IMG/VR virus record: IMGVR_UViG_3300026543_000167
Location: 1 to 58,420 of that record
Length of the DNA: 58,420 nt
Reading direction: 5' to 3' (one strand)
Source of the DNA: a virus
Taxonomy: Duplodnaviria; Caudoviricetes
Part shown: positions 2,349-52,082 of the stretch, in pieces
How positions within the stretch are numbered: the stretch's first letter is position 1
How the letters are laid out: each line of letters starts with the position of its first letter
The notes under the pieces: generated by a model
What the model saw: the letters and a program-made list of their open reading frames with translations, nothing else
The model's database searches: none
Told to the model about the DNA's origin: nothing
Made by a program: the position numbers and the translations under genes

Positions 2349-2558
2349 CTATCGTACGATAAGCTTACAATCACGATCAAGAGCAGGGGCGCTCAATCTT
2401 TTATAGGAAGGAACATCAAGTTTTGAACCGCCAGCCTTTTTGGAGATGAAAATAACCACATCAATGCCAAATTGGTCAGCAACTTCTCGCCAGATATTGG
2501 GTTCTCCGGCACGGTTCTTACGATTGATATCTTCGGGGATAATTTCAAGATGAATCAT
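2349..2558 (-). CDS. Short Mor-like transcriptional activator
   Basis: EVADQFGID...KKAGGSKLDVP resembles the Mor/C N-terminal region. Confidence 0.45.
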   Translation of the reverse strand: MIHLEIIPEDINRKNRAGEPNIWREVADQFGIDVVIFISKKAGGSKLDVPSYKRLSAPALDRDCKLIVR

Positions 2559-5122: not shown

Positions 5123-5374
5123 CTAGACTTTTGCTAATGTCTTAACATCGTCCATTGAAGCACCAAAATTAATATGAAGAGGCATACCAGGACCAAAAAC
5201 AATAGCTGGAACAGATTTAATTCCAGCTCTTTCAGCCTCTGCAATACGCTTCGGGTTTTCAACCAAATGGACAGTTTCCACTTCAAATAAATCACTATTT
5301 ATTGAATCAATAAGTTCATTTTCAGCGTGTTTACAAATGGGGCAACCGGCGTGATAAAATATTGCTTTTTTCAT
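5123..5374 (-). CDS. Glutaredoxin/thioredoxin-like protein
   Basis: MKKAIFYHAGCPIC (CxxC) and the cis-Pro motif SVPA. Start trimmed to the internal ATG. Confidence 0.85.
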   Translation of the reverse strand: MKKAIFYHAGCPICKHAENELIDSINSDLFEVETVHLVENPKRIAEAERAGIKSVPAIVFGPGMPLHINFGASMDDVKTLAKV

Positions 5375-5507
5375 AATAACCCTTTCATAATTTGAGACTT
5401 TTGGGTCTCGGTGACCAGAGTGCAATAGGCACTCAGGATTTAGTTATTTTTCAACTCAGATTACACTGTTACTCCACTGTTAATGGGCTGATATTTATGG
5501 ACATTTT

Positions 5508-6862: not shown

Positions 6863-6938
6863 TCACTATGGTTTTTGATTAAGGGATTCCTTCAAGGTTC
6901 CACAGTTATCACCCAATCGGAAAGCGGGTGCCGGGTTT

Positions 6939-7190
6939 TTAATTATTAAGGGCATCTCTGGCGATGAATTCCTTCATGGCCTTTATCATATCTTTTCGGG
7001 TGGAATTGCTGATGTAATTCATTCGATGAGTTCCGTCATCATCCCCTAACTGAAATACCAAAAGAGCGAATCCCCATTTACGCACTTTGGTTTTGTAATC
7101 TTTACCGTTAAATGTTTCATCAAGGACTTCACCCCAGCACTGCATTTGAGTCCTGATTTCGTTTTCTATGGGTTCGTCATTATCGGGCAT
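6939..7190 (-). CDS. Conserved phage hypothetical protein
   Basis: GFALLVF..G.....NYISN..R.DM..AMKE motif. Confidence 0.7.
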   Translation of the reverse strand: MPDNDEPIENEIRTQMQCWGEVLDETFNGKDYKTKVRKWGFALLVFQLGDDDGTHRMNYISNSTRKDMIKAMKEFIARDALNN

Positions 7191-7383
7191 GGACGTGTCC
7201 TTTGTTTTTTGATCTTTTTTGTTTGTGGCTTGGGCGCTTAGAATTGCGAAACAACCTTTTTAGGCGATTGGTAATGCGTCCATTGTCCTTGGTCAAAATG
7301 TCGGGACCTAAACTTCCCTGCAAAAATCCTGATGTTGCTTTTATTTGTTCATCACGAGCTTGCATAATTTTTTCCTTTAAAAA

Positions 7384-7453
7384 AGCCTATGGCGGGATTC
7401 GAACCCGCGACCACTGGGTTAGAGCCAGTTGCATTCCATTCTGCCACATAGGC
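7384..7453 (-). tRNA. tRNA with CUA anticodon (amber suppressor)
   Basis: Acceptor GCCTATG/CATAGGC; D-arm GCA-GAATGGAA-TGC; anticodon arm ACTGG-CTCTAAC-CCAGT; T-arm GCGGG-TTCGAAT-CCCGC; U73; no encoded CCA. Confidence 0.85.
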
Positions 7454-7461
7454 TTCCAAAT

Positions 7462-7755
7462 TTAAACCAATCGAAAACCTCGGAATCGGGGATCTTTGTC
7501 ATCGCCAAGCATGGCAACAGCTGTGATTTCACCTCTCATATCCGGTTCATAAAAAGCCACTGCCCCATTCATTTTATCGGACGTGTGAATCATTAATTCA
7601 GCCCATGTTGCTTTGAGATAGACCAGATCACCATTTTTCCAAGGCAATTCCTCTTTATTATATTGCTTGAGTAAAAACTCAGCCAGAGCATGACCCGCTT
7701 GCACCGCTTGCTGAGATTTTGACAGGCTCTTCAACACTAACACATACATTTTCAT
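7462..7755 (-). CDS. Peptidyl-tRNA hydrolase 2 (Pth2)-like protein
   Basis: KMYVLV..SLS.SQQAVQAGHA...FYEPD..GEITAVA matches phage Pth2-like proteins. Confidence 0.7.
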   Translation of the reverse strand: MKMYVLVLKSLSKSQQAVQAGHALAEFLLKQYNKEELPWKNGDLVYLKATWAELMIHTSDKMNGAVAFYEPDMRGEITAVAMLGDDKDPRFRGFRLV

Positions 7756-8068
7756 CCAAACAGCTCTCCATAATTATATTGACCAGTCTCATACTTGGCC
7801 GGATTCGAGATTCCAAGGCTTTTGGATTTTTTGGTAATCTTTCAATTTGTTCCATAGTTTTTCCACGCATCATAGACGCCGCTATATGATGATGACGAAA
7901 TTCCTCTTGCACAACATCCAACCAAACTCCGGGTGTTGGGACAAAATTAGGAAACTTTCTTGGGCGCACCGTCTTTCTCAGGTCTTTAAGACGAACGATG
8001 AGATTTGCGAAGATATGCAGTTGTTCTTTTAATTCCATTCTTTTTTTCCAGCTGTAAATCGTTTTCAT
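7679..8068 (-). CDS. Hypothetical protein
   Basis: FRHHHIA.S..RGKT.EQIE motif seen in phage hypotheticals; GGAG RBS. Confidence 0.6.
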   Translation of the reverse strand: MKTIYSWKKRMELKEQLHIFANLIVRLKDLRKTVRPRKFPNFVPTPGVWLDVVQEEFRHHHIAASMMRGKTMEQIERLPKNPKALESRIRPSMRLVNIIMESCLDENVCVSVEEPVKISASGASGSCSG

Positions 8069-8139
8069 TAATATTCTCCAGTATTAAAGTTAAAGGAATT
8101 ATGTCCTGGAGAATTTATCAAGGGGGTTTATTGAGCTAC

Positions 8140-8688
8140 GTCATCGCTGTCTCCTTTTGGGTTTCTCTTTCATGATGGCTCGCTATACTTCTCTGGTTTT
8201 CTTTGTTGGTTTGACACGCTTTCTTTTTTTGGGTTTCTTAGATATGATGACGCGCTCCGGATTTACGGGTTTCTCTATTGATGTGACTCGCTTATTTATC
8301 TTGGTTTTCTAGCTGGTATTGACACGCTCCTTTATTTTGGGTTTCTCCAAAAGAATGACTCGCTTACATTAGATGGGTTTCTAGCCTATTTTGACACGCT
8401 ATGGAAATTTGGGTTTCTTTTAAAATGTGACACGCTCCGGATTTACGGGTTTCTACTTGCCTTTGGCACGCTTCATAGCATTGGGTTTCTCAAATATATT
8501 GGCTCGCTTTACTCCTATGGTTTTCTAATCAATATTGACACGCTAGTGTTTTCTGGGTTTCTTGGAAGATATGGCTCGCTTTATTCTATTGGGTTTCTCG
8601 ATTCGCGTGACACGCTTACTTATCATGGGTTTCTATGATTTATTGACACGCTTATTTATCTTGGTTTTCTATATGTGAGTGACATACT
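8140..8688 (-). repeat. TIGR-type dual-spacer guide-RNA array 1 (orphan; 15 units of 36 nt)
   Basis: Plus strand reads TGRCWCGCT-N9-TGGKTTTCT-N9 with an exact 36-nt period. Edge repeats at 8140, 8176 ... 8680; spacers vary. Confidence 0.92.
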
Positions 8689-8692
8689 TAAA

Positions 8693-8767
8693 TACGCCTG
8701 GTGGGACTCGAACCCACAACCATACGGCTTAGAAGACCGTTAAGCTATCCAGTTGCTTTACAGGCGT
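8693..8767 (-). tRNA. tRNA-Arg(UCU)
   Basis: Acceptor ACGCCTG/CAGGCGT; anticodon loop CT-TCT-AA; T-arm GTGGG-TTCGAGT-CCCAC. Confidence 0.92.
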
Positions 8768-8975
8768 GTTTTTTTTAGCGGAAAACTTTTTACCGCACCA
8801 CGGGCAATATTTCATCGGAATAAAATGATCAGGACCAAAACTGAATCCTCTCCGAGTTTGTTGCAATGCGATAGGTCCATTTATTTTTTTCATTCCCGGC
8901 TCCCAATCAGGACAACCGCAATGTATGACTTTTTTGGTTTCCGTAGCCATTTTATTCCTCCCGTGGATTTTTTAA

Positions 8976-9547: not shown

Positions 9548-9850
9548 TCATTCTTGTGCCCTTTTGTTCCAATTTTGTTTGCATTTTGGGCACATATCGT
9601 TTATGTGACCATTTGGTGATTTTCTAATTTTGATAGGCTTTCCACACCCGAGACAAATTTCCATGCCTCTTTTAATTATCCATGAAAACCAAAAAACCTG
9701 AGTCCTAAAGCATTCTATGGGAGTGTTGCCATCTTCAGGAATATGCCAGAAACTTGGCCAACCGGTTTTATTGCCGATTATATATTCTACAAAATCATCG
9801 GACGCATCCGGGATGTATTCTTTGACAATTTCTTGAAGCGTTTGTTTCAC
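9548..9850 (-). CDS. Hypothetical Zn-ribbon protein
   Basis: CLGC...CPKC; strong GGGGATGGG RBS. Confidence 0.55.
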   Translation of the reverse strand: MKQTLQEIVKEYIPDASDDFVEYIIGNKTGWPSFWHIPEDGNTPIECFRTQVFWFSWIIKRGMEICLGCGKPIKIRKSPNGHINDMCPKCKQNWNKRAQE

Positions 9851-9868
9851 CCCATCCCCCTTTCATTC

Positions 9869-10174
9869 TTGTGGCCAACTTGTGGCCACCTGTGAATTAC
9901 ACCCCCTATTATAACGTAAAATGGCGACTTGTGGACGGTTTGTGGCCACCTACAATTTGGCCATATTGAGAATTGGGTTGAAGCGAGGTTAGTTAAGCTA
10001 TTGAAAAATAAAGCATACTGGAAAGTATCGACGGCTCGTATTTTGATAATATGAGAAAGATGCTGGCGTGAGAGGCCAGCGTCCTTACCCCTAGACGATG
10101 GGGCCGCTTTAAAAATCAATAACTTAACAACTCGCTTCAACCCTCATTCTCGACTTGTGGCCGGTTTGTGGCCA
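9869..10174 (-). mobile_element. Putative attP: 5' half of tRNA-Glu(CUC) with IHF sites and integrase arm-type repeats
   Basis: 10061-10105 (minus) reads GGCCCCATCGTCTAGGGGTAAGGACGCTGGC-CTCTCAC-GCCAGCA. TTGTGGMC pairs lie at about 9869-9889, 9927-9950 and 10152-10174. AATCAATAACTTA at 10114-10126 fits the IHF consensus. Confidence 0.75.
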
Positions 10175-16752: not shown

Positions 16753-17109
16753 TTATCTGCATCTGGTTGTAAATCCACCCATATGATCTGGAATTATCAT
16801 GCATCTGGATGTTTTAGATTTAAAGCTATTCCCGGCGTCCCTGAATGCATTGCCCATAATTTCACCACGCCTTTGATTTGCTATTTTTTCCTGGTTCATG
16901 GTATTCATCACACAATTAGATAATTCAGGCGTTTCCTGCTTAAAACCATACGATTTACATTGATTTTCGGCATCCATGATTGTAAATGGTTTTTGATGTG
17001 CACAACCCATTGAAATTGCAATAATTAATATAATTATTAATTTCCTCATAGCCATCCCCTTTTGACTTTTATTTTTTAGCTTCTTTAATGATACCATATG
17101 TGATATCAT
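16753..17109 (-). CDS. Putative lipoprotein
   Basis: Lipobox SMGC after a hydrophobic stretch. The true start is probably the internal MRKLII. Confidence 0.6.
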   Translation of the reverse strand: MISHMVSLKKLKNKSQKGMAMRKLIIILIIAISMGCAHQKPFTIMDAENQCKSYGFKQETPELSNCVMNTMNQEKIANQRRGEIMGNAFRDAGNSFKSKTSRCMIIPDHMGGFTTRCR

Positions 17110-17115
17110 TTGTAA

Positions 17116-17496
17116 ATGAATAAAAATAAAGAAACCCTACAGAGAAATAAAGAGACTTCGAAATATCCTTTTGAGGTGAGTATATTGCCGGAGGATGCGG
17201 CTGGTGGGGGTTATTTTATAACATATCCGGATTTGCCAGGTTGTATGTCCGATGGGAAGACACTGGAAAAGGTGCTTCAAAACGGCCAGGACGCGGTGTG
17301 GTACTGGCTGAAAACTGCTAGGAAGCTTAATCAGGAAATACCAAAACCAGGGCGACCTCACAGCGGGCAGTATGTTCAACGATTGCCAAAATCACTTCAT
17401 GCTAGATTGGTGGCCATGGCAAAAGCTGAAGGCGTAAGTCTAAATAAATTAGCTTTATCTTTTATTGCCGCAGGAATCGGCAAAGGGTTCAAATAG
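17116..17496 (+). CDS. hicB: HicB-family antitoxin (orphan)
   Basis: GGYFITYPDLPGCMSDG.T.E plus the RHH domain SG....RLPKSLH.RL...A..EGVSLN. Confidence 0.9.
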   Translation: MNKNKETLQRNKETSKYPFEVSILPEDAAGGGYFITYPDLPGCMSDGKTLEKVLQNGQDAVWYWLKTARKLNQEIPKPGRPHSGQYVQRLPKSLHARLVAMAKAEGVSLNKLALSFIAAGIGKGFK

Positions 17497-18136: not shown

Positions 18137-18322
<186 letters not shown>

Positions 18323-19992: not shown

Positions 19993-20511
19993 CTATTTCA
20001 CAATTATTTCCTTGGTAAACATTTTATAAATAAGAGACGCAAATAAGGTGACCCCAGCTAGAAAAAATGAAGCACCCGATACCTGGGCAATAAGGCTCAC
20101 CGCTTCCTTTGCTTGGTGCGTGCCGCCCATTGCTGGAGCAAGTAATCCCGCCAACAACCAGAAAGCTCCATAACCTAAACTTCCGAGTCCACTCAATAGG
20201 GAAACGCCATTTTGAATTTTGGGATGGGAATTGAAAAAGACAATCAATAGGGAAAAGGCAATGGCGATGACGCCCATGGTTTGTGAATGCAGATGAGCAC
20301 GTTTAAGGTAGACCCAGGATTTACTGATAACTTTATCCATTTTTTCCTGTACACCGCCATATTTTTCCTGGGCAACAGAATCGGCCTGTGTTTTCAGAAA
20401 CCCTTTTATATCATCTTCACAACAACCGAACGAAAGCCCCATCGATCCGCCAAACAAAATAGCGACCACGGCGAGGAGAATTCCATATTTAACGTGAGTG
20501 AACTGAATCAT
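19993..20511 (-). CDS. Multi-pass membrane protein
   Basis: About 4 TM helices and the RAHLHS motif. Start trimmed to MIQF. Confidence 0.65.
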   Translation of the reverse strand: MIQFTHVKYGILLAVVAILFGGSMGLSFGCCEDDIKGFLKTQADSVAQEKYGGVQEKMDKVISKSWVYLKRAHLHSQTMGVIAIAFSLLIVFFNSHPKIQNGVSLLSGLGSLGYGAFWLLAGLLAPAMGGTHQAKEAVSLIAQVSGASFFLAGVTLFASLIYKMFTKEIIVK

Positions 20512-20528
20512 AATAGAGTCCTTTTTAA

Positions 20529-21581
20529 TTATTTTACATCCCAGACCTTCATGTGTTCTTTCAAGGTTTCCCTTTTTAACCTGGCATATACCAACGTCGA
20601 CCGGATATCCGCATGGCCGAGAATCTTCTGAACCACTTCGAGGGGAACACCAGCGTTGATCATAAAACACGCCGAAAAATGCCTAAAATGATGAAAACTG
20701 GCCCATTGGAATCCGGCGCGTCTGAAAGATCGTAGAACCTGATTTGTCATAGCCTTTGCTTTGATCCCAGGGAAAAACAAATCTTCGTCGCCCAGAGGCC
20801 AGACCTTGATTTGCTTAAAGACATTGCGTAATTTTGCATTAATAGGAATGCTGACCGGGCGTCCGGTTTTGGTTTGGTGGACTTCGATCCACCCAGCCAT
20901 AAGGTTGACATTCTTTTTCTTAAGGTTGACAACGTTGCCCATGCGCAAGGAAGAATAGGCGGCAACCAAACAAGGTAGTCTGTAGACTCCACAAACAAAG
21001 TTGTGGATAACATTCAGCACATCGGACTCCTCTAGGATCTGAGTTTCATCAAACCGTTCCCCTTTATTCTCGAATTTCAGCTTGGGTAGCTGAAAATTAC
21101 GATTTCCCAGACAAACTATTTTTTTCAGGCAACGGAATTCCTTTTTAAGAGTACTTTCCGGTTTATGCTTATTGGCTTCATGGTATTTAAAAACTTCATA
21201 TTCATTGATTTCCCCGATCTTAAAATCGGAAAAATACGGAACCAGGTGGCAACGGATAAGGATCTCTTCCCTTACCGTGGCATTTGGAAGGAATTCATGA
21301 ACCGCCTCCATGAAATCTCTTTTAAATGAATTATATTCCCCTCTTTCTACAGCAAGCTCTAATTCAGCGAATTTTTTGCGAGCCAACCGTTCGTCTGTGG
21401 TGCCCAGGCAATCCCGGATTCTCAGCCCGTTGATGCGTTTCTGGGCATACCATATCTTGTTAACTCCTCTCTGTACCATATATTCGGCCATCGGTTCCTC
21501 CCTTTCGGAATACCGAGGCCATCGACCTTTCCAGTGGGTTGCACTATATACCACACTTTTTCTTTTGATGGAATTGGTCAT
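20529..21581 (-). CDS. int: Tyrosine integrase
   Basis: Catalytic residues R (SLRMG), K (QTKTG), HxxR (FHHFRH), LGH and Y (LVYA). Confidence 0.93.
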   Translation of the reverse strand: MTNSIKRKSVVYSATHWKGRWPRYSEREEPMAEYMVQRGVNKIWYAQKRINGLRIRDCLGTTDERLARKKFAELELAVERGEYNSFKRDFMEAVHEFLPNATVREEILIRCHLVPYFSDFKIGEINEYEVFKYHEANKHKPESTLKKEFRCLKKIVCLGNRNFQLPKLKFENKGERFDETQILEESDVLNVIHNFVCGVYRLPCLVAAYSSLRMGNVVNLKKKNVNLMAGWIEVHQTKTGRPVSIPINAKLRNVFKQIKVWPLGDEDLFFPGIKAKAMTNQVLRSFRRAGFQWASFHHFRHFSACFMINAGVPLEVVQKILGHADIRSTLVYARLKRETLKEHMKVWDVK

Positions 21582-22381: not shown

Positions 22382-22399
22382 TTACTGATTCCTTTAGAA

Positions 22400-23445
22400 T
22401 GAAACGCTCAGCACTGGTGGTTTTCTTGTTCCCGTTGGCTCGCTTGATCTTCATGGGTTTCTTTGACAAAATGGCACGCTAAATTAGTATGGGTTTCTTC
22501 ATTTTCGTGACCCGCTTTGGGATAGTGGGTTTCTTTGAGAATCTGGCACGCTCCGTTTTCATGGGTTTCTATATTTCATTGACACGCTAGTTTAGAATGG
22601 GTTTCTTTATTTTCGTGACCCGCTCTGTGGGTTGGGTTTTCTTCGGACTTTTGGCTCGCTTGCATCTTATGGGTTTCTTTTAGGATTTGACTCGCTACTT
22701 TGTTTTGGATTGCTCGTCGGAATTGACACGCTCCTTCATTTGGTTTTCTTCTTATGATTGACACGCTAATCTAATGTGGGTTACTTTTCTCCTATGACAC
22801 GCTAATCTCCTCTGGTTTTCTTCAAACGGTTGACACGCTTCAAAGATTTGGTTTTCTCTCTCTCATGACTCGCTAATACTTTTGGTTTTCTGAATAGAAT
22901 TGGCACGCTTTATTTTTCTGGTTTTCTTAATCGTAGTGACACGCTTTCTCATCATGGGTTTCTAAAATTGGATGGCTCGCTAGATAACCATGGTTTTCTT
23001 CGATTCCGTGACGCGCTTAAGAGTTATGGTTTACTAAATCTGTATGACTCGCTTACTCTTTTTGGGTTTCTTAGATGTGATGACTCGCTTTCTTTTTTTG
23101 GGTTTCTTAGATATGATGACGCGCTCCTTTCTTGTGGGTTCCTAGTCAACATTGACACGCTTAAAGCTCGTGGTTTTCTCGCCCAACATGGCACGCTTTC
23201 GTTTTTTGGATTTCTTCACTTAAATGGCACGCTTAACAACAATGGTTTACTCATGGAGTATGACTCGCTCGCAGGTATTGGGTTTCTGAAATGATGTGAC
23301 TCGCTAGGGACCAGTGGTTTTCTTTCTCATGTTGACTCGCTTTCAGAGAGTGGTTTTCTCCCTCGATATGACTCGCTTTCTGTTTCTGGTTTTCTTTGCT
23401 AATTTGGCTCGCTCTATGATATTGGATTTCTTTGTTCGTTTGACT
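22400..23445 (-). repeat. TIGR-type dual-spacer guide-RNA array 2 (29 units, 36-nt period)
   Basis: RNA-strand unit WGYCA-N9-AGAAAMCCA-N9-AGCG. The first AGTCA overlaps the TAG of the upstream Nop-domain gene. Three spacers are 8 nt. Confidence 0.93.
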
Positions 23446-41386: not shown

Positions 41387-41686
41387 TTATGAAATTATCG
41401 CCCTATCTGTAACCCTTAGCCAATTTGTCCCATCACTGAAAGCAGGTATTGCCCCACCAGTTTCATCAGAGACTCCTATGAAACCCATAACTGGAAGAGC
41501 AGGAACAACAGGCAAGGTGGTCACTGTAAAAACCGGCAATTGTAAAAAATCGCCAACCGAAAGATTAATAGCAAATTCAAGATCATCAAAATAGGATTGG
41601 TAATCGTCTGAAACTACGACAACTCCATCTTGATTATTGCCAATTGGCTGACTATGATGTGGTCTACTTCCTACTATTTCACTCAT
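41387..41686 (-). CDS. Small virion protein
   Basis: LP.FTV.TLP...VSDE.GGA.PAFSDGTNW.RVTD. Confidence 0.6.
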   Translation of the reverse strand: MSEIVGSRPHHSQPIGNNQDGVVVVSDDYQSYFDDLEFAINLSVGDFLQLPVFTVTTLPVVPALPVMGFIGVSDETGGAIPAFSDGTNWLRVTDRAIIS

Positions 41687-43071
41687 GCGAGTTGTAAGGG
41701 TCCATTTGCATCTACGATTAAATGATCGGCAGAAAATTTTATATCTTCGGTTGTGAAAATTTTAACTGCCATAAAACCTTTGTAAACACCCATGCCTCCA
41801 GGGTAATTCCACTCTAATAAATCCGAATATTTCCCTAATATTCCAACGTCACGATAAAAAAGTTCAGAAAAAAGAACATTATCTCGGCTCACCTGAATAG
41901 CAACGCCCAGAGAAGTTGATATTAAAGGATTGAATCCTTGACTGATTCCAAGTGCCGCACTTTGAACTGTAAACCACTGACCGTCAGGTTGTCTGATTCC
42001 GAATTGAATTTCTCGGGGCAATCTTATTCCATAATCTGTGTTGACTTCATCAAGGACCCCAATCTTGTCTTCGAATGCAGAAAAATAACTTCCTTCAAAT
42101 TGCGCTATGAAACCCCCACCCCATGGGATAAAATCTCTTTCTCCCAATTTAGATAATCGGAACCAATTTCCATTAAAAAAACCAAAAGCATCTCTTCTGA
42201 AAGTAAAAGTGGCGATATCATCTCCTCGCCACTTAAATCTAGCGGACCTTACTTCTCCTAATTCCTCAAGAGTGTAAGTCTCCAATATCGTATCGATTGC
42301 CCGATTGCTAATTTTTGGAGCCACCCCGGACCCGATCGCATAAATCCCAAAATCTTGATCTTTATCTCTCCCAACAAATAGAAAAGTATTGCCGTATTCC
42401 AAAAGTCCGCCGATAAAACCAACGTCAATAGCTGCATTTCTAGTTGAATAAGGGATAGGTGATGTGCCCCTATTTACAAATGATTCCGCTGAATTAGTTC
42501 CCATGATGTAAAGGAAATTTTTTAGAGTAAAAACCTGATTATTTCTGTCTGGTAATTGTTCAGCATCGAAAAAACTCAATACATTCACAGTTCCTGCATC
42601 ACCAACATCTGAAAAAAACACCGGGTCTCCACTGGAGGGGCAATAAATGAATCTATTACCTTGAGCGGTTACGCTCACACAAGGAACAAAATTGGTATTA
42701 CCACTGATAAGCGTCAATACATCAGTTTTGCTTAACGTGTATATAGAACCACCAGGGTCCAAAATCACCGCATCAACAAAACCAATGGCAACTTGGATAT
42801 CTCCAGCACCTGATATTGTTCCTACGTTTGTAAATGCTCCTGTAGTTAAATCAGTAATTTTCCTTAAGGTATTGGTAAAGAGCATGTAAAGTGAATCATT
42901 GAAAACAAATACCCCTCTAGCAACAGTGGCGGTGAGAGTGTTTAACAAAGATACTCCGGGGCGAATTTCAATCCACCCTTCCTTCGTCTTATAACAATTT
43001 ACCAGGGACTTTTTTGTCTTTGGTAAATCGTCAGATCCCTCAAGACCATTCGGAAATTGTAATTCAGCCAT
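41683..43071 (-). CDS. Packaged-DNA stabilisation protein (P22 gp10-like tail hub)
   Basis: F.DAE..PD, GT.S.E.F...G....P and synteny. Confidence 0.8.
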   Translation of the reverse strand: MAELQFPNGLEGSDDLPKTKKSLVNCYKTKEGWIEIRPGVSLLNTLTATVARGVFVFNDSLYMLFTNTLRKITDLTTGAFTNVGTISGAGDIQVAIGFVDAVILDPGGSIYTLSKTDVLTLISGNTNFVPCVSVTAQGNRFIYCPSSGDPVFFSDVGDAGTVNVLSFFDAEQLPDRNNQVFTLKNFLYIMGTNSAESFVNRGTSPIPYSTRNAAIDVGFIGGLLEYGNTFLFVGRDKDQDFGIYAIGSGVAPKISNRAIDTILETYTLEELGEVRSARFKWRGDDIATFTFRRDAFGFFNGNWFRLSKLGERDFIPWGGGFIAQFEGSYFSAFEDKIGVLDEVNTDYGIRLPREIQFGIRQPDGQWFTVQSAALGISQGFNPLISTSLGVAIQVSRDNVLFSELFYRDVGILGKYSDLLEWNYPGGMGVYKGFMAVKIFTTEDIKFSADHLIVDANGPLQLA

Positions 43072-43076
43072 ATCCT

Positions 43077-43529
43077 TTACTCGCCTTTTGGCCTACCTGT
43101 TCCCCAAAAAACCCGCTTATTAAATAACCCGTCCACATTTCCTTGACCAGTTGGGGTGGTGCTAGATAATGTAAAATTTGGAATGGCCTGACATCGATAG
43201 GCTCTTTTCAAATCGTTGAAGCCTATTCTGGCATTTGTTCTTAACTCCGGAGAAACCACGCTTAAACTTCCGCTACTATAATTTGAGGACAATTGAATCG
43301 CCAAATTATCAATAATGGCTTCAGTAGCATCTACAGGTTCGGCCAATTGACCACCTGGGACATCTAAGTTTACAAATGGAAGATCTATAAATTTTGTACG
43401 CCATCGATCCAGCATGCCGTTTAAAGCTTCCATTCCCTCAACAATGGCTTCGTCTGGTGGAGTGTTGAAAACGGTATACGTTCCAGTCCGTTTATAAGCT
43501 TTTGTGATTATGTCGGTTCCTATTGACAT
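43077..43529 (-). CDS. Head-to-tail adaptor (P22 gp4-like)
   Basis: DII..A....G...LNGML..W...AI..NLA..L...P.G.GN. Confidence 0.75.
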   Translation of the reverse strand: MSIGTDIITKAYKRTGTYTVFNTPPDEAIVEGMEALNGMLDRWRTKFIDLPFVNLDVPGGQLAEPVDATEAIIDNLAIQLSSNYSSGSLSVVSPELRTNARIGFNDLKRAYRCQAIPNFTLSSTTPTGQGNVDGLFNKRVFWGTGRPKGE

Positions 43530-48876: not shown

Positions 48877-48896
48877 ATCAATTCCTTTAATAAAAA

Positions 48897-49163
48897 CTAA
48901 TTAAGAATGGCCTTTCGGTCACTTAACGGATTGCATGGACATGGTGCTCCTGCTCCACCGCAACATTCACACTCCCCCCAATCCCATGGTGTTGTTTCGT
49001 GGTTTTCACAAACCCAACCCTGTCCTTCGCAATTCTGACATCCAACGTCCGCGTGGTCTAAATCATGGATATCTTTATGATCTTTGCTCATATCGATTCC
49101 TTTAATTTCTTCCGGTATGGCCAAAACGTTTGACCTTTGGAATATTTCGATAAATTTCATCAT
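48897..49163 (-). CDS. Small Cys-rich hypothetical protein
   Basis: C..C.G.GWVCENH...PW....C.C.GAG.PC.CN. Confidence 0.55.
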   Translation of the reverse strand: MMKFIEIFQRSNVLAIPEEIKGIDMSKDHKDIHDLDHADVGCQNCEGQGWVCENHETTPWDWGECECCGGAGAPCPCNPLSDRKAILN

Positions 49164-50502: not shown

Positions 50503-50904
50503 TATTGACTATCATATCGCCGGTTAAATTTATTTCTTTTGGCATCGGTGACTCGGTTTGTTCGAAAATCAACTTAATGGCCTGAATATCTCCTTTTACC
50601 GCTGCTCTAGTCAGAGCGTAGGTAATAATTTCGGCATAATCTTTATCTTTTAGTTTGATGCCCTTTTCTTTGAATTTATCAAGAATATCCTTAGCGCCCT
50701 TGGTCTCCACCCACCGATTCAGGCGTGCTCTCAGCCCTGTCTTTGCACCCATGGGCCGACCGTTGGGGTTTCCGGATTCACCAGGTTTAAAGGGTTTTAA
50801 ATTCGGATATTTTTCCTCTTCTTCTTTGGTATTGATAAAACCTCCAATTCATAGGCCCCGCATTTCTTGCAGATCCTCTCCCTTTGATTTTTATTTCGTG
50901 TCAT
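50474..50904 (-). CDS. terS: Terminase small subunit, split by an apparent frameshift near 50812
   Basis: NLKPFKPGESGNPNGRP lies upstream of the listed ATG in the same frame. A 35-aa ORF (50797-50904) coupled to the MTase stop supplies the likely N-terminus. Confidence 0.65.
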
Positions 50905-52082
50905 CCAATCTGTCCAATGGTGGAACCATCCCCAATGGCATCTTTCTTCTCCCCAGATAATTGGCATATTTCTTTTTCGGGAAACAAATTCCCGTATCGT
51001 TCGACAATCACATCGCAGTAAGCAGGGTCAATCTCCATCATGTAGCACCGGCGCTTCATTTTTTCGCAGGCGATCATGGTCGATCCTGAACCGCCGAATG
51101 GATCGTAAATTATTGGTCCTTCAATCCTATATGCAGCCCTTTCCATGCACCATTCAACCAAAGAAACTGGTTTCTGCGTGGGATGAACGCGATTCGTTTT
51201 TTCTGAAGCCTGGGTAAATTGTCTTGTAACTCCATTTAAATTTGTCCAGGCCAACTCGCAATCCATCTGATCACTTCCGCCGTTGTTTTTATCCCAAACA
51301 AACCAACAAGATCTATTCGGAAGGGCATTTGCATAATAATTTGCACCCCACCAAACCATCGGAATATCGACATCCATGCTCCTGAAAACTTTTATAGCAA
51401 CGTCCACCGAGTCATCATTTTGAATGGGGCGATATTTATTTTTTAATACCCCTGAATGTTCGACCGCCCTGATTCCATAAGGAGGGTCAGTGAAGACTAA
51501 ATCAGCCTTTTGGCCGTTCATTAGGCGATCGACCGAAATTCGAACCGTTGAATCGCCGCACAAAAGGAAATGATCACCCAGTTGATACATATCTCCCAGT
51601 TTGGTTTTTGGTTCCTCCGGAGGCTCAGGGGTCTCGTCTTCGCCTTCCAACTCTCCAGCACCAGATTTATCACCAAACATTTCGGCCAATTCATCTTCGC
51701 CAAAGATATTTTCAAATATATCCTCGTGTTCGTCATCCAATAGGCCAAGATTCTCTATGTCCCATTCGGCAAGTTCGGCTGTCCGGTTGTCATAGAGAGC
51801 CAGTTTCGCTTTCTCTTTTTTAGTCAATCCTTTCCGCCTCACAACGACCCACTCATTGCCATCGGCTTCGACAACTTTAACCTTTTCAATTCCTGCTTCC
51901 GACAGTGCTTCGAAAGTTCCATTTCCGGCTAAAATATTTCCATCTTCGTCGATGACACCTGACCTGGCAGCGCCAATTTCACGTAAGGCATCGGCTATCA
52001 TGCCAATATTCCTGGGGTTATGCTTCCGAGCGTTTTTTATGTCCGGTTTCAAATCTTTGAGTGTCTTTATCATTTTATCCAC
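50901..52082 (-). CDS. ParB-like N-terminus fused to N6/N4 DNA methyltransferase
   Basis: NARKH...ILAGNG...DNRTAELAEW; DPPY; HPTQKP; DPFGGSGST. Confidence 0.92.
   Translation of the reverse strand: MDKMIKTLKDLKPDIKNARKHNPRNIGMIADALREIGAARSGVIDEDGNILAGNGTFEALSEAGIEKVKVVEADGNEWVVVRRKGLTKKEKAKLALYDNRTAELAEWDIENLGLLDDEHEDIFENIFGEDELAEMFGDKSGAGELEGEDETPEPPEEPKTKLGDMYQLGDHFLLCGDSTVRISVDRLMNGQKADLVFTDPPYGIRAVEHSGVLKNKYRPIQNDDSVDVAIKVFRSMDVDIPMVWWGANYYANALPNRSCWFVWDKNNGGSDQMDCELAWTNLNGVTRQFTQASEKTNRVHPTQKPVSLVEWCMERAAYRIEGPIIYDPFGGSGSTMIACEKMKRRCYMMEIDPAYCDVIVERYGNLFPEKEICQLSGEKKDAIGDGSTIGQIG

Follow-up and report, generated by a model that had tools for sequence, protein, structure and literature searches.

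A tRNA gene of the amber-suppressor type belongs to a conserved three-part cassette with a predicted Pth2-fold protein in uncultured phages

Suppressor tRNAs have repeatedly been noted in phages with the standard genetic code, for example jumbo phage XacN1, and have gone unexplained in this setting. For recoded phages like the crAss-like and Lak phages, the accessible text of the Borges et al. preprint (10.1101/2021.08.26.457843) describes phage-encoded CUA tRNAs that are predicted to be charged by host synthetases, refers to Lak megaphages as TAG-recoded, and reports that surveys of recoded phages rarely find synthetases or release factors beside the suppressors. The same text covers standard-code relatives of recoded phages that acquire suppressors (in the TGA case) as well as the "code change module" of Jade phages, in which a suppressor tRNA is combined with a synthetase and a release factor. 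XacN1, in the accessible part of its description (PMC5852040), has a standard code, two CUA suppressor tRNAs in its terminal repeats, and a Pth gene (ORF295); in-silico read-through of 18 amber stops gave no target, and a linkage of hydrolase and tRNAs is not described in that part. Similarly, the available portion of the report on standard-code phage Atu_ph07 lists an opal suppressor and two Pth genes, the PTH2 proteins of jumbo phages are known and interpreted as ribosome rescue factors in the accessible text of Iyer et al. (PMC7824862), and a 2026 jumbo-phage survey discusses suppressor tRNAs without using the word peptidyl in the sections available. Here, we analyze a tRNA gene with a CUA anticodon, tRNA(CUA), in IMG/VR record IMGVR_UViG_3300026543_000167 of an uncultured phage (58,420 bp, analyzed entirely and called the window below; classed as linear and ~84% complete). 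We find that this gene is the RNA member of a conserved three-part cassette, X -> mini-Pth2 -> tRNA(CUA), which lies on the minus strand of the window and comprises, besides the tRNA, a small protein of predicted peptidyl-tRNA hydrolase 2 (Pth2) fold and a protein of no known family that we call X (Table 1).

Like the suppressors of recoded phages, tRNA(CUA) is a phage-encoded CUA tRNA for which charging by a host synthetase is predicted, but this phage and the seven other cassette-bearing contigs that we examined whole use the standard code (code 11), and our alignments point to lysine instead of the glutamine of code 15. As in the Jade module, the suppressor is clustered with genes of the translation apparatus, yet its partners are a Pth2-fold hydrolase and X, the codon is TAG and not TGA, and neither the release factor domain PF00472 nor the class IId synthetase domain PF01409 had a match in the phage record at its 84% completeness. 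With XacN1, the phage shares the standard code, amber suppression, and a hydrolase gene in the genome, but the XacN1 hydrolase is not close to mini-Pth2, since a tblastn search with the latter against 50,697 GenBank phage records gave matches only in Lak megaphages (15 records). The text of the Borges et al. preprint (10.1101/2021.08.26.457843) contains none of the words hydrolase, peptidyl, and Pth, and a full-text literature search, with supplementary tables outside its reach, returned no paper in which suppressor tRNAs are linked to a Pth2-like gene or to X. What we consider new is the X-mini-Pth2-tRNA(CUA) cassette, of which we found no description; neither suppressor tRNAs of standard-code phages nor PTH2 in jumbo phages is new in itself.

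Cassette loci were collected through the hydrolase alone, so that the tRNA played no part in their choice: 47 viral and 80 metagenome loci, together with those of this phage and of its closest relative (129 in total), were reduced to 113 non-redundant loci by merging proteins of at least 95% identity. tRNA(CUA) was present in 37 of the 48 loci of a first set, always on the hydrolase strand. Across the non-redundant loci, a same-strand tRNA(CUA) follows in 61 of the 73 with at least 1 kb of downstream sequence (at most 1 kb away in 56 of them and at most 100 nt in 36), and none was found on the opposite strand. The stop-reading CUA anticodon is retained in 83 of the 113 loci, at a median distance of 14 nt from the hydrolase gene; among all 255 tRNAs encoded in the loci, 86 have the anticodon CUA and none UCA or UUA, and where a locus has only one tRNA it is the CUA type in 37 of 41 cases. 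On the other side, X precedes mini-Pth2 in 86 of the 100 non-redundant loci with at least 400 nt upstream. When both flanks are available (67 loci), the cassette is complete in 47 and lacks only X in four, eight have X without tRNA(CUA) within 1 kb (five of these with one farther away), and eight have neither.

We found no further gene conserved between hydrolase and tRNA in the cassette loci, which range over uncultured phages from T7-like types to contigs of more than 300 kb, and the cassette travels with stop-codon-reading tRNAs in standard-code and recoded phages alike. The two protein genes are closely interlocked: in this phage, X overlaps the start of mini-Pth2 by 77 nt, with mini-Pth2 in the X+1 frame, and the same frame with overlap is seen in 74 of 93 loci, compared to 12 loci with both genes in the same frame (about eight of them true in-frame fusions) and seven in X+2. 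A programmed +1 frameshift from X into mini-Pth2 was considered and is unsupported; since the X stop simply sits in the conserved CGTAAR codons of the hydrolase gene, overlap and translational coupling suffice for this layout. The initial annotation of the window had remarked on the adjacency of a Pth2-like gene and the tRNA, which is real, but had missed both the third gene X and the conservation of the cassette.

tRNA(CUA) is recovered by ARAGORN as well as by Rfam, where its RF00005 match spans the full model (1-71) with 67.8 bits at a gathering threshold of 29 (E 1.2e-12) and is the highest scoring among the three tRNAs of this phage; the CUA tRNA with full cloverleaf described initially is therefore real. 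Its 7-nt anticodon loop CU-CUA-AC, with U33 and A37, closes on a 5-bp stem; the acceptor starts with G1:C72, C2:G71, and C3:G70 next to discriminator U73, the 4-bp D stem contains a G13-A22 mismatch, G18G19 are present, the variable loop has 4 nt, and the T arm is standard. The loop, the first two acceptor pairs, U73, and the variable loop had all been read correctly before, while the gap to the open reading frame (ORF) of mini-Pth2 measures 8 nt by the Rfam ends or 7 nt by the ARAGORN ends in place of the 9 nt once given. Because no CCA is encoded, this end must come from the host. The T run that follows the tRNA is kept in the closest relative, where the more distal flank is not; it may represent a terminator or processing context, and a simple terminator scan found no site on this strand. 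An Rfam scan of positions 6900-8900 by E-value returned two tRNAs and one chance match, with no ribozyme beside tRNA(CUA).

The closest relative is another IMG/VR phage (G001, with cassette locus L001) of 62,005 bp with terminal repeats that is rated complete and shares 80% identity in the portal and 71% in the Pth2-like protein. It carries tRNA(CUA) at the same place with the anticodon loop UU-CUA-AA. While the DNA around the hydrolase region is ~73% identical between the two phages, their tRNAs differ at 11 of 70 positions, distributed as one of 42 stem positions versus ten of the 28 others (Fisher p 2.6e-4), and the anticodon, acceptor stem, and U73 are identical. Since the substitutions avoid the stems and the anticodon is kept in the relative, a pseudogene or a sequencing error is ruled out; a miscalled anticodon base, the caveat attached to the initial annotation, is excluded by this independently assembled 62-kb genome together with the 83 related loci that have CUA.

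ARAGORN labels the gene tRNA-Pyl, an identity that we rejected. tRNA-Pyl has a 6-bp anticodon stem, a tiny D loop without G18G19, and a 3-nt variable loop and is paired with PylS, whereas tRNA(CUA) has a 5-bp anticodon stem, G18G19, and a 4-nt variable loop in a record (84% complete) without PF01409 match. A blastn search among GenBank phages matched only the T-arm halves of lysine, methionine, glutamate, and histidine tRNAs and is uninformative on identity. The glycine- or cysteine-like features pointed out initially fit in U73, G1:C72, and C2:G71. However, the glycine identity set comprises G3:C70 besides these elements and that of cysteine combines U73 with a GCA anticodon, while the 3:70 pair is C:G here and the anticodon determinants are missing.

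This identity also fares poorly across the family. All 86 non-redundant cassette tRNA(CUA) are class I and share their decoding loop to a large extent (CUCUAAA in 64 and UUCUAAA in 14), but they differ in the discriminator (39 A, 27 U, 17 G, and 3 C), and their acceptor stems are unrelated. Hydrolases with ~50% identity to that of this phage (L060, L061, and L062) also adjoin tRNAs with different acceptor stems. With the decoding loop fixed and the body free or often replaced, selection therefore appears to act on UAG decoding and not on one acceptor-based identity such as glycine or cysteine.

Read-through itself is called for within the cassette, because 25 of the 113 mini-Pth2 genes (7 of 48 in the first set) contain an in-frame TAG within the span matched by the family profile and can give the full enzyme only if this codon is read. 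In the core of X, an in-frame TAG occurs in only one of 93 genes, with five more confined to the overlapping tail. The TAGs of mini-Pth2 sit at variable loop or surface positions, and at 26 such sites the nearest TAG-free homologue has lysine in 12 (mostly coded AAA), glycine in five, and glutamine in one. Coded mostly by AAA, lysine is not a one-step mutational neighbor of TAG at these sites. We regard lysine as the most likely residue at UAG, as a lead and not a result, with glutamine second. The lysyl- and glutaminyl-tRNA synthetases of E. coli (LysRS and GlnRS) charge many tRNAs with CUA anticodon through U35, and the lysine lead fits this mode of charging. Similarly, the laboratory amber suppressors of E. 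coli are CUA elongator tRNAs that work against release factor RF1, and arbitrary tRNA bodies given a CUA anticodon tend to be charged with lysine or glutamine via U35. tRNA(CUA) resembles these suppressors as a CUA tRNA of the elongator type but differs in being natural, phage-borne, and conserved with two protein genes.

The Pth2-like nature of the neighboring gene, as initially proposed, is supported at the level of the fold. The AlphaFold (AF2) model of mini-Pth2 has a predicted local distance difference test (pLDDT) score of 95.2, and its 13 best Foldseek matches in the PDB, comprising all those with E <= 0.001, are Pth2/Bit1 structures (probability 1.00, E down to 5e-6, template modeling score up to 0.75). 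Likewise, a profile of 48 family members matches Pth2 MJ0051 (2zv3) over its full length (E 5e-5), mini-Pth2 itself matches phrog_3668 "hydrolase" (4.3e-8), and precomputed PF01981 assignments are attached to 20 of 82 homologues, two of which are named peptidyl-tRNA hydrolase by their source. V18, Q19, G21, H22, A23, E70, and T78 are invariant in the family and P71 and D72 nearly so, and the conserved stretches around H22, E70/P71/D72, and T78 fall on the Pth2 motifs of 2zv3 in the profile alignment; the catalytic residues are presumably among these. Fold and conserved residues thus suggest that mini-Pth2 is a putative hydrolase. It has the fold and the GHA and T-A motifs of archaeal and eukaryotic Pth2 (MJ0051, 2zv3; Sulfolobus solfataricus, 1xty; human Bit1, 1q7s), but, with a family length of ~97 aa, is ~15-20 residues shorter with trimmed loops, has X as a partner, and is tied to tRNA(CUA). 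In the Prevotella Lak megaphages A2 and B5, a UUA tRNA of the ochre/amber-reading type (L140 3234-3306 and L141 3341-3413, respectively) lies ~700 nt upstream of the mini-Pth2 homologue on the same strand, and no X-like ORF was seen between the two.

X was found through an all-against-all comparison of the ORFs neighboring the hydrolase. The protein contains the motif (Y/F)RHxHIAY..RG(R/K)(T/S)xEQIE, with K14, R58, and H61 invariant, and its N-terminal helix is basic; the AF2 model (pLDDT 85) is a long helical hairpin. Pfam gave single-member chance matches only, PHROG and PDB sequences none, the protein atlas unnamed clusters below 0.9, and a Foldseek search with the model no match. VIA-align found generic helical hairpins at best (Z 7.2), among them the tRNA-binding coiled coils of ValRS and FemA (Z 6.3-6.6); this likeness is a common arrangement and no evidence of function. 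Searches by word index brought up 169 X proteins, and a full scan retrieved 1671 cluster representatives (at 50% identity) with E <= 0.001, 1069 of them with E <= 1e-10; X is a large unannotated protein family. A mini-Pth2 domain is fused to X in 8 of 137 further representatives, and a predicted complex of X and mini-Pth2 scored 0.02, which counts neither way.

The genome of this phage is standard-coded (code 11), without a TAG inside conserved genes except for one doubtful ORF (Table 1). The initial annotation was right that there is no recoding: greedily placed ORFs reach a coverage of 0.900 with code 11 and of 0.917 when TAG is read through, no better than the controls for TGA (0.906) and TAA (0.918). 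TAG was also rightly seen as a minority stop and is in fact the rarest, ending 11 of 105 ORFs of at least 50 aa and 5 of 76 of at least 80 aa. Among these 11, ten have read-through tails of 3-19 aa, mostly ending at TAA or TGA, and the eleventh is a 52-aa ORF on the plus strand that is probably spurious; none of the read-through ORFs joins two ORFs. A glutaredoxin-like gene had correctly been listed as ending in TAG, and so does the supposed Mor-like gene, though its name was not confirmed, with no Pfam match at E 0.01.

We also compared the TAG-read-through ORFs of this phage and its closest relative in all frames, with two repeat arrays set aside and the best-scoring frame retained per place. 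Fifteen alignments still contained a TAG, 14 of them as a gene-end stop, upstream of the start, or in an antisense frame. The exception, the ORF starting at 9847, is probably non-coding because its nucleotide identity (91%) exceeds its amino-acid identity (79%). The DNA at this place is the most conserved between the two phages (91%, compared to 65-80% elsewhere), with TAG in the relative where this phage has tyrosine; we favor a non-coding RNA or regulatory element over a gene here. Standard coding is a feature of cassette-bearing phages beyond this one: all eight contigs that we examined whole (this phage, G001, G002, G003, G006, G007, G008, and G009) have code-11 densities of 0.90-0.98 without a TAG-specific gain. 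In G002 and G008, which are partial (about 25-40% complete), tRNA(CUA) is the only tRNA found.

The phage has a P22-like portal with ~30% identity to cultured phages and genes for the large terminase, major head, scaffold, head-closure, and ejection proteins, besides an integrase, an ERF recombinase, an outer-membrane beta-barrel protein, and a cytochrome P460. From this gene content, we conclude that the phage is temperate and podovirus-like and infects a Gram-negative host. Searches of GenBank phages gave no close relative, a portal-profile scan of 185,579 bacterial species genomes gave no match, a pattern of the tRNA 3' half had 0 matches in the same genomes and among viral contigs only that of the closest relative, and an exact-pattern scan of viral contigs for tRNA relatives with any anticodon had 0 matches; with these scans empty, neither the host nor a sense-codon ancestor of the tRNA was identified. 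The two other tRNAs of the window are not found in the complete relative, whose sole tRNA is tRNA(CUA), and the tRNA-Pro lies ~2.3 kb off the integrase gene, which could reflect a link to the attachment site. The cytochrome P460 has a signal-peptide-like N-terminus and resembles an auxiliary metabolic gene, which hints at a host linked to nitrogen oxides or hydroxylamine. Beside the terminase gene, a ParB-like N-terminal domain is fused to a DNA methyltransferase.

Two tandem arrays of strict 36-nt period lie on the minus strand, the first directly upstream of the cassette, and both are kept in the relative, including this position of the first. Their units (14 at exact 36-nt spacing in the first array and ~26 with three 35-nt steps in the second) each contain two fixed motifs, AGCGTGTCA-like and AGAAACC-like, with variable spacers between, and 40 of the 41 genomic occurrences of the former motif fall inside the arrays, all on one strand. 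The arrays are probably non-coding binding-site or iteron arrays. We rejected the idea that they are TAG-containing ORFs decoded by the suppressor (one frame of the first array has 9 TAG versus 3 TAA and TGA): TAA and TGA still break the frame, the 35-nt units shift that of the second array, both strands are open in the relative, and the TAGs arise from the variable base that precedes a fixed motif.

Table 1. Features of the window and their coordinates.
Feature	Position	Strand	Basis and remarks
X	7679-8068	-	129 aa; no known family; basic helical hairpin; just upstream of mini-Pth2
mini-Pth2	7462-7755	-	97-aa protein of peptidyl-tRNA-hydrolase-2 fold; PHROG, profile, AlphaFold, Foldseek
tRNA(CUA)	7384-7453 (Rfam); 7383-7454 (ARAGORN)	-	ARAGORN and Rfam; class I, U73, CCA not encoded
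T run	7379-7383	-	Sequence; directly 3' of the discriminator
tRNA-Arg(UCU)	8693-8767	-	ARAGORN (Arg-tct)
tRNA-Pro(UGG)	18183-18259	-	ARAGORN (Pro-tgg)
First repeat array	8144-8693	-	
Second repeat array	22394-23445	-	
Mor-like gene of the initial annotation	2349-2558		ORF ending in TAG
Cytochrome P460	4591-5076	-	PF16694, E 2e-25
Thioredoxin/glutaredoxin-like ORF	5123-5425		Ends in TAG
Doubtful ORF	9847-10140		
Most conserved DNA	9852-10174		
HicB-like antitoxin ORF	17116-17496	+	PF15919, PF05534; ends in TAG, stop kept in G001
Membrane protein	~19993-20670		TAG stop shared with G001
Integrase	20529-21581		
Equivalent of G001 16788-17294 onward	~41683-43110		168-aa ORF and head-closure gene in G001
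Zn-ribbon-like ORF	near 48885-49091		TAG stop shared with G001
ParB-like/DNA methyltransferase fusion	50901-52082	-	phrog_498 (8.5e-83) and ParB-like phrogs

The explanation that we favor, with a little more than even confidence, is that this genuine amber-suppressor-type tRNA works as a suppressor within the X/mini-Pth2 cassette and has the hydrolase as its dedicated accessory. Since its genes are decoded with the standard code, the phage does not need this tRNA for its own ORFs. tRNA(CUA) would be transcribed together with X and mini-Pth2 and receive its CCA end and amino acid from host enzymes, with charging probably through anticodon U35 and lysine as likeliest residue before glutamine, and would then compete with RF1 to cause partial UAG read-through in the infected cell. 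The overlapping and probably translationally coupled X and mini-Pth2 genes would yield a tRNA-directed hydrolase that clears the peptidyl-tRNA or N-blocked aminoacyl-tRNA resulting from read-through (by drop-off or at ribosomes reaching 3' ends) or, alternatively, tunes the suppressor pool, and the TAG in a fifth of hydrolase genes would link production of the hydrolase to the activity of the suppressor. For the phage, the benefit may be insurance against amber mutations or a first recoding step (as in the model of Borges et al.), independence from RF1, counter-defense, or host manipulation. Of the initial suggestions, interference with UAG termination in the host and an early move toward recoding may still apply; the cassette is found in code-11 phages (all eight examined whole) as well as in phages with a TAG inside its own hydrolase gene (25 of 113).

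Several observations weigh against this explanation. A Pfam scan of mini-Pth2 at E 0.01 gave no match, PF01981 included, and the N-terminal VRxDL motif has lost its R and D in the clade of this phage and its closest relative. No synthetase can be named because acceptor stems and discriminators are heterogeneous, and the 26 TAG sites behind the lysine lead are not independent of each other (five fall in a single column) and are variable surface positions. Among the 67 well-flanked loci, 16 have no tRNA(CUA) within 1 kb, and all loci were retrieved with a single peptide pattern, QAVQAGH/A, so the sampling covers the core of the family and not its edges. There is also no sign of selection driven by read-through, since in cassette-bearing phages the tails behind TAG are not shortened (median 14 codons versus 10 for TAA/TGA; one-sided Mann-Whitney p 0.88) and TAG stops are not purged, ending 75 of 611 ORFs of at least 80 aa. 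Furthermore, the normal Pth of the host should suffice to remove free peptidyl-tRNA.

Alternatively, the cassette could be directed at the host or its defenses, which we consider unlikely though the most serious of the competing readings: the suppressor would free translation from RF1 or occupy UAG-programmed A-sites, and so guard against RF1 loss, inhibition, or a toxin acting at UAG or perturb UAG-ended host proteins, with the hydrolase rescuing stalled peptidyl-tRNA. The spread over unrelated phage types, from T7-like to contigs beyond 300 kb, is similar to that of accessory or counter-defense genes, and phages whose genes do not require the suppressor retain the cassette. Iyer et al. (PMC7824862), in the accessible text, propose ribosome rescue following tRNA damage for phage PTH2, and the available part of PMC9241777 names Pth as a detoxifier of a tRNA-acetylating toxin. 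Yet the Pfam/PHROG annotation of the neighborhood contains no recognized anti-defense gene, and our two scans of bacterial genomes gave no host. We also know of no defense that acts on RF1 or UAG. It seems improbable, too, that the cassette is an evolutionary intermediate or relic, a portable code-change kit without present role that was gained before in-frame TAGs appeared or left over after their loss. Suppressor gain by standard-code relatives is indeed proposed as a step to recoding in the accessible text of the Borges et al. preprint (10.1101/2021.08.26.457843), in-frame TAGs occur in the 25 loci of the same hydrolase family, the only GenBank phages with the hydrolase are the TAG-recoded Lak megaphages of those 15 records, and TAG is the rarest stop in this phage (5 of 76). 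However, the tRNA is structurally constrained between phages that are only ~73% identical in the DNA of the hydrolase region, it is the sole tRNA of the complete relative and of the partial G002 and G008, and eight standard-coded contigs out of eight are too many for a transient state.

An elaboration that we hold to be rather more doubtful takes the cassette as a self-contained, RF1-independent way of handling UAG, in which the tRNA would decode the stop codon and the dedicated tRNA-binding hydrolase would then strip the nascent chain from it once drop-off or splitting of the ribosome has occurred; either UAG would remain a stop, with one residue added, or read-through stalls would be cleared in proportion to suppression, and the in-frame TAG would serve as a feed-forward sensor of suppressor activity. 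Highly unlikely in our view is a tRNA(CUA) that does not decode at all, be it as guide or substrate of an X-mini-Pth2 enzyme (a ribonucleoprotein for ribosomes at UAG), a pseudogene, or a pyrrolysine tRNA. The free variation of the tRNA body around a fixed anticodon loop and the conserved, sometimes fused protein partners would agree with a guide, but the in-frame TAGs of 25 of 113 hydrolase genes need true read-through, the canonical cloverleaf is unlike tRNA-Pyl in a record where PF01409 was not found, and the stem conservation relative to L001 contradicts a pseudogene. Least credible of all is programmed read-through of particular TAG-ended phage genes to functional, C-terminally extended isoforms, close to the targeted read-through suggested initially. 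TAG stops shared with the relative do exist at the HicB-like gene, a membrane protein gene, and a Zn-ribbon-like ORF, and in the relative the TAG of a 168-aa ORF lies in frame with the next 619 codons including the head-closure gene, where amber read-through would yield a fusion protein. Nevertheless, this layout is missing here, with TAA/TGA two codons before the equivalent TAG, the short tails in this phage mostly run into TAA or TGA without joining a downstream ORF, no TAG lies within a gene conserved with the relative, and the 75 TAG-ended ORFs among 611 give no tail-length signal. Targeted read-through is thus not borne out.

If tRNA(CUA) is a working suppressor with a dedicated hydrolase, the cassette gives natural amber suppression concrete and testable accessory factors. 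It could account for the ability of phages to withstand UAG read-through or to profit from it, and it bears on how a change of the genetic code begins. The same parts may be of use as compact components for engineered amber suppression, and reading TAG as lysine rather than glutamine, if true, would alter the annotation of such genomes.

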